A stretch of 1,647 nucleotides of DNA from Escherichia phage ECO95 1-6-1. Shown piece by piece: positions 1 through 1,647 of this stretch. A model generated the notes under the pieces. It worked only from the letters and a program-made list of their open reading frames with translations, did no database searches and was not told the origin of the DNA. How positions within the stretch are numbered: position 1 is the first letter of the stretch; each line of letters begins with the position of its first letter. A program made the translations under genes and the position numbers. Location: the sequence record OR845765.1, one strand, 5' to 3'.

Positions 1-22
1 AGTCAGTGCTGGCTGTTTTTTT
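1..22 (+). repeat. Second copy of the terminator 3'-arm plus T-tract motif, truncated by the left window edge
   Basis: Seen in sequence: 1..22 AGTCAGTGCTGGCTGTTTTTTT aligns with 147..168 AGGTCAGTCGCTGGCTTTTTTT (shared TCAGT, GCTGGCT and T7, with about two single-base indels). The 5' stem arm, if it exists, would be upstream of position 1. Confidence 0.3.
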
Positions 23-130
23 CCTTAATAAAGCATCTGTAACTGAAACAATCCGCATATTGATAATATATTGACAGGCATCATTGCTGTCTGTGAAAAA
101 TAAGTCTCTACAAACATATAAGGCCTTTTA

Positions 131-168
131 GCCAGCGTCTTCTTTCAGGTCAGTCGCTGGCTTTTTTT
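131..168 (+). terminator. Candidate Rho-independent terminator acting on plus-strand transcripts (convergent with the esterase gene)
   Basis: Seen in sequence: GCCAGCG (131..137) is the exact reverse complement of CGCTGGC (155..161), with one further C:G pair possible at 139/153, giving a GC-rich stem. It is followed immediately by a 7-nt T-run (162..168). The loop is rather long (~13-17 nt), which lowers confidence. On the minus strand the hairpin is followed by UAAAAGG rather than a U-tract, so it looks unidirectional. Confidence 0.5.
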
Positions 169-169
169 A

Positions 170-1647
170 TTATGCTGCCGGTGCATTTATCTCCAGCACC
201 AGACTTTCTATCTCAACGCCATACGCTGCATTTTTTGTAACATCCGTCAGCGTCAGCGCATTCAGTCCCAGTGTCAGACTGTCTTTTATAACCTGGAATG
301 CCGGGCCAGCCACTCCATTCAGTTTCGGAGTAACCGTGGCACTGCCGGCGGTGAACACCAGCTCCAGCGTCTGCCAGTCGTTACCGTAATCGCCGAACTC
401 CCCCAGCTTCGTGTTTCCGGCTTTCCTGTGATGCATCAGATTCACTCTGCCGTCAGTGGTCTGAGTGAAGTACGACATCAGGAACGGATTACCGGTACCC
501 GTCATCGCCACACCATCAGGAACGGGAGCATCCGTATACAGATAAATCCCCAGCCCGAACTGATTGTTGGTCAGTGCGCCTGACAGGCGGAACTTACAGG
601 TCAGTCTGCCGCCCTGTGTCAGCAGGGTAATTGCGTCATCCACCGGATGCGTCAGGGACCAGGTTTTATTGCTCTGCCTGGTGATCTTAAATACACCATC
701 TGACAACTGAATTCCGCCATCCTTAATGCTCCAGCCCTGCGCAGCAGCCTCTCCGGCTGCCGGCAGCAGGGAGATTGTGCGAACGGACGTATCTGCAGAC
801 GGACCCGATGGCGTGTTGCCGCCGGGCGAGGGTTTGATTTCCGGTGCCTTACCACTGATGAAGGCTGAGGTGCGCCCGGCTGCGTTCAGAATAGCGGTTG
901 CCAGACGATCCGGAATAATGCTCCTGCGCGCCCATGAACTGAAATGTGTCGGGCGGTTTGATGATACCTGGTTTCCATTCGTTCTCGATGCCGCACCGTA
1001 ATATCCTGATGCCGGAATATCCGGATCTTCTGCCGGCGCGTTAGTGGCGGTATTGACGCCGTTACCGTCTGTCATGAAGGGCACAAAATAAACGCCCTCA
1101 CTCTCCCTGTTTTTATACCCGCCGTACACGGTGTCGTACTGGGTAGCGTATGTATTTTTCCAGTAATACGTCGTGTCACCACAAATCCACGGCACATCTG
1201 CAGCACTGCCACCATGGCACTGCGCGTTAAACACGGAGAGGTCAACACGAAACTGTGTCAGCATGGCTGTAAACAGCGCAGGTTGCTGTGCGTGGGTGGC
1301 GGCGCTCATGTCAAACTCTCCCTGCATCCAGCACACCGCCAGCAACACATTTTTCGGGTTCTTCTGTAATGCAGCTTTGGTGCGCGCAATCAGGTCCTGA
1401 TATAACGGTTTACCCACACCCCAGCGCGCCGAATCCTGGCTGGCCCCCGCGTCCGCACTGAATGTCCCCTCCGCGCCCTGGGTGAATGCCGAACCACCAC
1501 GACAGCATGGTACCAGCAGGATCCCCGCGTTATTCGGGATATACGGGAGCAGTTTTTTGGCAATATGTAACCCCTGGCCGACACAGCCGTACTGCCCTTT
1601 GCTCAGGTCTGCCTTCGGATGATTCAGCGTACTCATATCCTGCACAT
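170..1647 (-). CDS. nanS: Sialate (9-O-acetyl-N-acetylneuraminate) O-acetylesterase, SASA/SGNH-hydrolase family, prophage NanS-p-like; partial, N-terminus lies beyond the right window edge; carries a C-terminal putative carbohydrate-binding domain
   Basis: Seen in sequence: uninterrupted 491-codon reading frame on the minus strand ending at TAA (revcomp of 170..172), and still open at 1645..1647, so the GTG at 1643..1645 is an artefact of the window edge, not the real start. Translation contains SASA-family hallmarks: CWMQGEFD (the QGE block, 1310..1330) and a C-proximal RPTHFSSWARR block with a candidate catalytic His (944..946), followed by a P/G/S-rich linker and a beta-rich C-terminal domain. 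Family assignment is from recognition of the motifs, not from a database search. Gene symbol reflects the NanS-like family, with the phage paralogue (nanS-p) most likely. Confidence 0.85.
   Translation of the reverse strand, partial: VQDMSTLNHPKADLSKGQYGCVGQGLHIAKKLLPYIPNNAGILLVPCCRGGSAFTQGAEGTFSADAGASQDSARWGVGKPLYQDLIARTKAALQKNPKNVLLAVCWMQGEFDMSAATHAQQPALFTAMLTQFRVDLSVFNAQCHGGSAADVPWICGDTTYYWKNTYATQYDTVYGGYKNRESEGVYFVPFMTDGNGVNTATNAPAEDPDIPASGYYGAASRTNGNQVSSNRPTHFSSWARRSIIPDRLATAILNAAGRTSAFISGKAPEIKPSPGGNTPSGPSADTSVRTISLLPAAGEAAAQGWSIKDGGIQLSDGVFKITRQSNKTWSLTHPVDDAITLLTQGGRLTCKFRLSGALTNNQFGLGIYLYTDAPVPDGVAMTGTGNPFLMSYFTQTTDGRVNLMHHRKAGNTKLGEFGDYGNDWQTLELVFTAGSATVTPKLNGVAGPAFQVIKDSLTLGLNALTLTDVTKNAAYGVEIESLVLEINAPAA

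Follow-up and report, generated by a model that had tools for sequence, protein, structure and literature searches.

Does the 1,647-base stretch presented above (record OR845765.1; hereafter the window, to which all positions refer) derive from a prophage or from the bacterial chromosome, and which gene does it carry? Sialate O-acetylesterases are encoded in Escherichia coli by nanS (yjhS) of the chromosomal nanCMS sialic acid operon and by the nanS-p genes of prophages. NanS-p is a recognized accessory fitness factor of enterohemorrhagic and enteropathogenic E. coli (EHEC and EPEC), in which it supports growth on O-acetylated mucin sialic acids. The original prediction for this locus proposed the late region of a lambdoid prophage, in which lysis genes would be found on the left and a module for antitermination or toxin on the right. 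We show here that the window consists of a partial nanS-p gene and of the spacer leading to the phage lysis genes. This is a known gene in a known place, and the finding is in that respect ordinary. Based on the gene, the spacer, and the neighborhoods of close relatives, we consider it very likely that the window stems from the late region of an E. coli phage or prophage of the lambdoid type.

A partial nanS-p gene fills most of the window

The sole long open reading frame (ORF) seen in the 1,647 bases is located on the minus strand (positions 170 to 1645), is open over 491 codons, and continues past the right edge of the window. Pfam searches with this ORF detected the SASA (PF03629; E = 6.9e-11) and DUF6645 (PF20350; E = 3.4e-18) families, and nanS-p matched PHROG family phrog_143 (E = 4e-261). 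The closest relative (L001, from strain NZRM3614) differs from the window by 4 bases and encodes a 616-residue protein composed of DUF1737, SASA, and DUF6645, indicating that the window encodes residues 126 to 616 of such a protein. K448R is the sole amino acid difference between the window and L001 proteins. The missing 5′ portion of nanS-p (373 nucleotides [nt]), which encodes DUF1737 and the nucleophile block, lies beyond the right end of the window. In this portion, block I (GQSN), containing the serine nucleophile, projects to positions 1799 to 1810 and DUF1737, detected in the 616-residue relative (PF08410; E = 1.1e-15), to positions 1871 to 2014. The CCRGGS, WMQGEFD, and RPTH motifs are inside the window (Table 1).

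Alignment to the structure of chromosomal NanS (PDB 3PT5), with a full-length relative as the query, gave an E value of 2.4e-121, and the C-terminal domain aligned to the C-terminal domain of "NanS-p" (PDB 6YP6) with an E value of 8.6e-30. Reviews and alignment are the basis for the numbering of catalytic residues. The fold of the C-terminal domain and its proposed binding of carbohydrates are from Franke et al. (2020), as cited in a review (PMC8065619). Judged from its sequence, the window gene thus has both the SASA/SGNH catalytic domain and the linker plus C-terminal lectin-like domain of a NanS-p. The original prediction had started from this layout of catalytic domain, linker, and C-terminal domain, which the Pfam matches, the alignments to 3PT5 and 6YP6, and the coordinates bear out.

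The catalytic part is also homologous to chromosomal NanS, with 52% identity to the K-12 protein in addition to the match to 3PT5, and the window might on this basis be taken for nanS of the nanCMS operon. We regard this origin as next to impossible. Chromosomal nanS is excluded because its K-12 product is a single-domain protein of 326 residues (SASA), because the 52% identity is confined to the catalytic part, and because the gene is located beside nanM and nanC; the ORF of the window has approximately 240 extra residues through the linker and DUF6645. The full-length megablast matches that were sampled all carry annotations as SASA or DUF6645 proteins, and those for which the neighborhood was read are in prophages. 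The spacer holds the prophage small RNA (sRNA) gene pasA (see below). Identity with chromosomal nanS was therefore ruled out by the domain content and by the spacer, which has no counterpart at nanS. Neither the features of chromosomal NanS (a single domain of about 326 residues encoded beside nanM and nanC) nor the nan operon setting that the original prediction had named as contrary evidence was found, K-12 nanS differing in length, domains, and setting.

Relatives of the window lie between a Q-type gene and a holin gene

Over all 1,647 bases, spacer included, the window is 97.6 to 99.8% identical to the sampled relatives (megablast E = 0). Matches were found in 46 deposited phage genomes, including 24, mostly Stx1a-converting, at ≥99% identity (Stx, Shiga toxin), and in 1,939 of 5,426 complete E. 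coli genomes, which contain a median of 2 and a maximum of 11 matching places per genome. Identity to the window is 99.2% for phage YYZ-2008, 99.0% for H-19B, and 97.7% for phage 434. We read the neighborhoods of 12 full-window relatives in this identity range (L001 to L005, L009, L010, and L014 to L018). Besides the best match, these comprise three that are phages or reference strains and eight further hits that were top ranked or evenly spaced.

All 12 relatives encode a class II holin on the same strand as the esterase, about 450 nt past the esterase stop codon (leftward); the holin of the closest relative matches PHROG phrog_9876. In 11 relatives, the holin gene is followed by an endolysin gene, by a gene for a spanin or "lysis protein," and then by terminase genes. 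A Q-type antiterminator gene is present 1.3 to 4 kb to the right, upstream of the esterase gene, in 12 of 12 relatives. Three of these Q-type genes are annotated "DUF1133," and the copy in EDL933 matches PHROG phrog_753, "anti-termination protein Q-like" (E = 5e-81). The interval between Q and the esterase contains tRNA genes (9 of 12 relatives), small membrane-protein genes (several), and stx1A/stx1B (1 of 12, YYZ-2008). Genome counts are in agreement: window positions 1 to 400 (spacer plus 3′ end of the esterase gene) are covered at ≥80% in 675 genomes, and a query spanning the holin gene, the spacer, and the 3′ end of the esterase gene is covered at ≥80% in 687. In all of these neighborhoods, the minus-strand lysis genes were accordingly found on the expected left side, and the antiterminator or toxin module on the expected right side. 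The order Q-stx-nanS-p-S is that of the literature (PMC8065619 and PMC10462455). Through its relatives, the window gene is predicted to occupy the late-region position characteristic of nanS-p, flanked by Q (with stx, where it occurs) and by the holin gene S, and the spacer with the 3′ end of pasA inside the window supports this placement.

The surrounding prophage could alternatively be a decayed remnant that has lost part of the lysis cassette or of the Q module. The twelfth relative provides an example: in L010 (NZ_CP027454.1, an O121-lineage strain), insertion sequence IS600 truncates the endolysin gene and the core genes uspF and ompN come next (L010 2598 to 4118). A second insertion sequence, IS1203, cuts the region to the right of Q in L015, and many strains retain only an esterase deletion scar in the same slot (L012). 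These cases are to be set against the 11 of 12 relatives that keep holin, endolysin, and spanin genes, the Q-like gene kept by all 12, and a window ORF that is intact over its 491 codons, which together make decay improbable here. We also observed that the L010 prophage is cut immediately to the left of its holin and YdfR genes. The scar in L012 (NZ_CP021202.1, positions 4004 to 4350), in the slot between Q and holin, consists of a DUF1737 pseudogene beside a 53-residue ORF matching window positions 164 to 309. Many strains outside the STEC (E. coli that produce Shiga toxin) match these positions only (hits H105 to H119, for which L012 is the one locus read).

The spacer begins within the sRNA gene pasA

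The 169-nt noncoding left end of the window is the spacer between the esterase and holin genes, and within it is the 3′ end of pasA, a prophage gene for an sRNA. The spacer contains two GC-rich hairpins with T-runs on the plus strand, opposite the esterase, both of which are marked as plus-strand terminators in the annotation of phage 434. In EPEC E2348/69, the gene for the Hfq-binding sRNA PasA is flanked by E2348C_0688 (esterase) and E2348C_0689 (holin) and is convergent with them (Pearl Mizrahi et al. 2021; PMC8550237, Table S6). PasA exists as a major form of 85 nt and a minor form of 236 nt and has the EHEC homologues EcOnc51/52 (PMC8550237).

We mapped the coordinates of PasA onto the window through the E2348/69 locus (L005). 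Positions 1 to 22 agree at 22 of 22 bases with the 3′-terminal 22 nt of PasA, the 3′ end of the major form falls at position 22, and the first 63 nt of pasA are to the left of the window. The strand of PasA and its distance to the esterase stop codon are the same as in E2348/69. The end of the minor form (record position 743264) corresponds to position 171 (173 in the E2348/69 numbering), on the esterase stop codon. Comparison of the 85-nt forms revealed 11 differing positions between L001 and E2348/69. By sequence and position, the element is the 3′ end of pasA, since the terminator stem-loop and U-tract, the convergent orientation with respect to the esterase, and the location between esterase and holin are all present. 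The window therefore begins inside a prophage sRNA gene, which provides direct support for the prophage setting within the window itself. The original prediction rightly stated that phage structural and toxin genes are missing from the window, but the statement is incomplete, as the 169-nt left end is a phage marker. The esterase-PasA-holin-lysozyme arrangement is also described in a preprint, which gives YYZ-2008 as the representative PasA phage (bioRxiv 10.64898/2026.05.13.724894). An Rfam scan of a region of L001 that includes the equivalent of the window found no family in the spacer, from which we take PasA to be absent from the library (Rfam 15).

The second hairpin of the spacer has the features of an intrinsic terminator facing against the late operon and folds with −16.5 kcal/mol (z = −3.0). 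Scans of the window for σ70 and terminator consensus sequences gave counts no higher than those in shuffled sequences, and no promoter claim is drawn from them. Alignment of five relatives revealed a TT indel in the loop of the second terminator, after position 142: the two bases are absent from the window and from L001 and present in YYZ-2008, phage 434, EDL933, and E2348/69. L009, like L001, matches the window over 1,647 rather than 1,649 bases.

Several points weigh against assignment of the window to the late region of a lambdoid prophage as an intact nanS-p locus. The neighborhood is known through relatives, the flanks of the window itself being unseen, and the closest match differs at 4 bases. 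A 167-nt segment with the combination of single-base differences private to the window had no exact match in the collections searched (viral_contigs, genome_contigs, and metagenome_contigs), and an exact lookup of the partial protein retrieved no record. The 12 neighborhoods are a small and not a random sample, since they were drawn from STEC-rich complete RefSeq genomes and deposited phages. The tallies of 675 and 687 given above count genomes and not places. The surrounding prophage may be decayed, like that of L010 with its IS600-cut endolysin gene. The serine block and DUF1737 are outside the window, and the gene may not be intact. Finally, the clade of 616-residue proteins is about 49% identical to L0105 of phage 933W and may fall outside the alleles assayed in the literature.

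Table 1. Positions of the features assigned in the window
Feature	Position	Strand	Basis
nanS-p, partial coding sequence (residues 126-616 of 616)	173..1647	−	ORF, Pfam, PHROG, L001 protein
SGNH/SASA catalytic domain, part (residues 126-379)	884..1647	−	Alignment to NanS (PDB 3PT5)
CCRGGS motif	1490-1507	−	Motif coordinates
WMQGEFD motif	1310-1330	−	Motif coordinates
Block IV (RPTH) with catalytic His	944-955	−	Motif coordinates
Pro/Gly/Ser-rich interdomain linker (residues 380-420), AAGRTSAFISGKAPEIKPSPGGNTPSGPSADTSVRTISLLP	761..883	−	Flanked by stretches similar to 3PT5 and 6YP6
C-terminal lectin-like jelly-roll domain (residues 421-613)	182..760	−	PDB 6YP6, Pfam PF20350
DUF6645 Pfam core	290-622	−	PF20350
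nanS-p stop codon (TAA), which the tail of the terminator on the plus strand overlaps	170..172	−	Sequence
Last 22 nt of pasA (85-nt form): descending arm of terminator hairpin and U-tract	1..22	+	Mapping via L005
3′ extension of the 236-nt minor PasA isoform (read-through from first to second terminator)	23..171	+	Mapping
Intrinsic terminator directed against the late operon, with stem 130-140/152-162 and T-run 162-168	130..168	+	Inverted repeat, fold, scanner hit, phage 434 annotation
Candidate shortened PasC-like unit: TTGACA...CTGTCTGTGAAAAAT motif (71-101) and PasC-type terminator	71..168	+	Alignment

The source was probably a prophage devoid of stx

The relatives argue for a prophage without stx in which the genes are ordered Q, tRNA-Ile/Arg/Arg, nanS-p, pasA, S, and RrrD, and we consider this the probable source. 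The two closest relatives, L001 (99.8% identity) and L009 (99.6%; a prophage of strain H19), both contain Q, a methylase remnant, tRNA-Ile/Arg/Arg, the esterase, the holin, and RrrD, and no stx gene was found in either neighborhood.

The main alternative to a toxin-less prophage is an Stx1a-converting phage carrying stx1AB approximately 0.5 kb upstream of the esterase start, as in YYZ-2008, where stx1B is about 500 nt from that start. We hold such a source to be unlikely, although the 24 of 46 matching phage records at ≥99% identity mostly belong to this type. Phage collections are skewed toward toxin converters. The junction between stx1B and the esterase gene was found in 163 genomes, whereas the junction between the tRNA genes and the esterase gene was found in 528 and is thus about three times commoner. 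The preprint cited above reports stx1A in 92% of PasA-containing phage genomes but stx beside <3% of chromosomal pasA genes (bioRxiv 10.64898/2026.05.13.724894). The TT indel separates the same relatives, as L001 and L009 match the window over 1,647 bases whereas YYZ-2008 carries the extra TT. A prophage with the tRNA trio and without stx therefore remains our preferred source.

Further observations were made in the interval between Q and the esterase gene. The middle tRNA of the prophage trio is annotated as tRNA-Val (80 nt) and not tRNA-Arg in L017 (NZ_CP148746.1, positions 7693 to 7772). In L001, the interval from the tRNA genes to the start of the esterase gene (12168 to 12436) matches Rfam family STnc100 on the minus strand (175.6 bits) and the anti-sRNA AgvB on the plus strand (56.2 bits, for a gathering score of 56). 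The presence of STnc100/AgvB agrees with Tree et al. (2014), who described a "moron" site downstream of pR′.

Homologues in other elements

The same gene family occurs in elements that are not lambdoid. A homologue that is 87.4% identical and encodes 626 residues lies between lysC and tail genes of a P2-like prophage (L006), and fragments together with some full copies are present on records labeled as plasmids, so that the window might derive from a P2-like prophage or a plasmid. This origin is very improbable. The P2-type copies match from position 170 onward only, at about 86 to 87% identity, and lack the spacer, whereas the spacer of the window is identical or nearly identical to the lambdoid type; the sampled plasmid matches are short remnants between insertion sequences (L011). 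The lambdoid late region proposed by the original prediction is thus supported by the setting of all 12 relatives, but the family is not strictly lambdoid, as illustrated by the ~87%-identical copy in the P2-like prophage. The presence of this copy indicates that the gene has moved between unrelated phage types.

The homologue of the P2-like prophage (NZ_OZ040015.1; L006 6001 to 7881) has the same three domains. Plasmid pO26_EH2252_3 contains a fragment made of the 3′ end of the esterase gene and the spacer, between uilS and IS600 (L011 3001 to 3240). E. coli plasmids of approximately 82 to 95 kb match positions 18 to 257 or 18 to 340 at 91 to 93% identity (hits H102 to H104 and H120). Three Escherichia albertii plasmids match positions 1 to 1057 at ~97% identity in two pieces with no annotated gene beneath (hits H132 to H134), which suggests that these copies are internally deleted or truncated.

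A possible shortened PasC-like unit in the spacer

The motif CTGTCTGTCAGAAAAT, found upstream of both pasA and pasC, occurs again at positions 86 to 101, ahead of the second terminator. The similarity of this terminator to that of PasC reached a score of 46, compared to a maximum of 27 for shuffled sequences (0 of 2,000 shuffles reached 46). The similarity of the upstream motif was matched by 17 to 41 of 2,000 shuffles. Positions 71 to 168 could, from these alignments, form a separately transcribed, shortened sRNA of the PasA/PasC family, in tandem after pasA and with a promoter-like motif of its own and a PasC-type terminator reaching the nanS-p stop codon, instead of being just the read-through tail of the 236-nt PasA isoform; we put this forward tentatively and think it rather unlikely. 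If true, positions 71 to 168 and pasA would make a tandem Pas unit. A 2026 survey of Pas sRNAs reports no tandem copies, the nearest pair of pasA genes being 22 kb apart. The separateness of the unit is a suggestion of this analysis, and the unit is its sole mildly new point. The idea of two full-length tandem sRNA units in the spacer was dropped, as the alignment contains only a shared terminator and a short upstream motif, and the second body is shorter.

Proposed function of the locus

In the arrangement that we propose, nanS-p would be a "moron" gene with the Q antiterminator module on one side and the lysis cassette on the other; the window holds its 3′ four-fifths on the minus strand. 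The Q module would include tRNA genes, sRNA genes, and, in Stx phages, stxAB, and the lysis cassette would encode pinholin S, the endolysin, and the spanin. Upon prophage induction, Q would promote transcription from pR′ through nanS-p into the lysis genes, as expected from the literature on the family, in which nanS-p is induced together with stx as a late gene (PMC8065619 and PMC10462455). Read on the late-operon strand, each hairpin stem has an A-run before it and lacks a U-run after it; the late transcript should therefore pass both hairpins and reach the holin gene. On the opposite (plus) strand, pasA is convergent with nanS-p, and its terminators end at position 22 and on the nanS-p stop codon.

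The product is predicted to combine an N-terminal DUF1737, encoded outside the window, with the SGNH/SASA esterase and the C-terminal lectin-like domain. The NanS-p alleles of EDL933 and of O104:H4 that have been assayed are all active esterases on Neu5,9Ac2 (5-N-acetyl-9-O-acetylneuraminic acid), and they enable growth on this compound and de-O-acetylation of mucin glycans (review PMC8065619; PMC10462455). By analogy with these relatives, the esterase of the window would de-O-acetylate Neu5,9Ac2 and mucin glycans, thereby allowing the lysogen to grow on them. For the window allele, this activity is putative. According to a 2026 preprint, DUF1737 of gp84 of phage phi24B binds capsid hexons, thus decorating the capsid, and the protein is proteolytically processed.

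For annotation, the window can be labeled as a lambdoid prophage late region that holds partial nanS-p and the pasA 3′ end, and the analysis has little value beyond this label. A sequence of the nanS-p/pasA type marks a prophage and often, but unreliably, an Stx phage. It should not be taken as evidence of a toxin gene, because the closest relatives lack stx and because so few chromosomal pasA loci are located beside it.

Comparison with known systems

Chromosomal NanS (YjhS; PDB 3PT5) has a homologous SGNH/SASA domain, including the block IV histidine, but lacks DUF1737 and the C-terminal lectin-like domain and shares 52% identity with the window protein in the catalytic part alone. The NanS-p proteins encoded by lambdoid and Stx prophages, among them L0105/z1466 (933W) and vb_24B_21/gp84 (phi24B), have the same order of SASA domain, linker, and lectin-like domain as the window protein, and their genes occupy the same slot, bounded by the Q/stx module and by the S holin gene.

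Within NanS-p, sequence comparisons suggest two deep clades, the window allele belonging to a clade distinct from the best-studied one. The 616-residue alleles of H-19B, YYZ-2008, phage 434, and EDL933 are 97.7 to 99.5% identical to the window at the DNA level (99.3% for the EDL933 copy) and differ at 6 to 13 amino acids over 491 residues. In contrast, identity to the window protein is ~49% for the 933W L0105/phi24B type, which accounts for 307 of the 351 phage records matched by the protein encoded at positions 170 to 1645 in a search of the phage collection. Block IV reads RPTH in the window and RSSH or RASH in the 933W/phi24B type; the RPTH variant has been described for prophage 86 by Pascal et al. 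(PMC10462455). Of the four aromatic residues proposed to bind sugar in phi24B, Y510, Y515, and Y540 correspond to aromatic residues in the clade of the window protein (F, Y, and F; approximately positions 209 to 520), and F611 corresponds to the nonaromatic L, according to the 3PT5/6YP6 alignment read by eye and with an inferred numbering of the 6YP6 chain.

With respect to the Pas sRNAs of EPEC E2348/69, positions 1 to 22 of the window correspond to the 3′ end of PasA, only the last 22 of its 85 nt being present, and positions 23 to 171 correspond to the tail of the 236-nt isoform. The second terminator of the window shares the stem of PasC and, like PasC, abuts an esterase stop codon. The candidate unit at positions 71 to 168 differs from PasC in its shorter body and is undescribed as a gene of its own.

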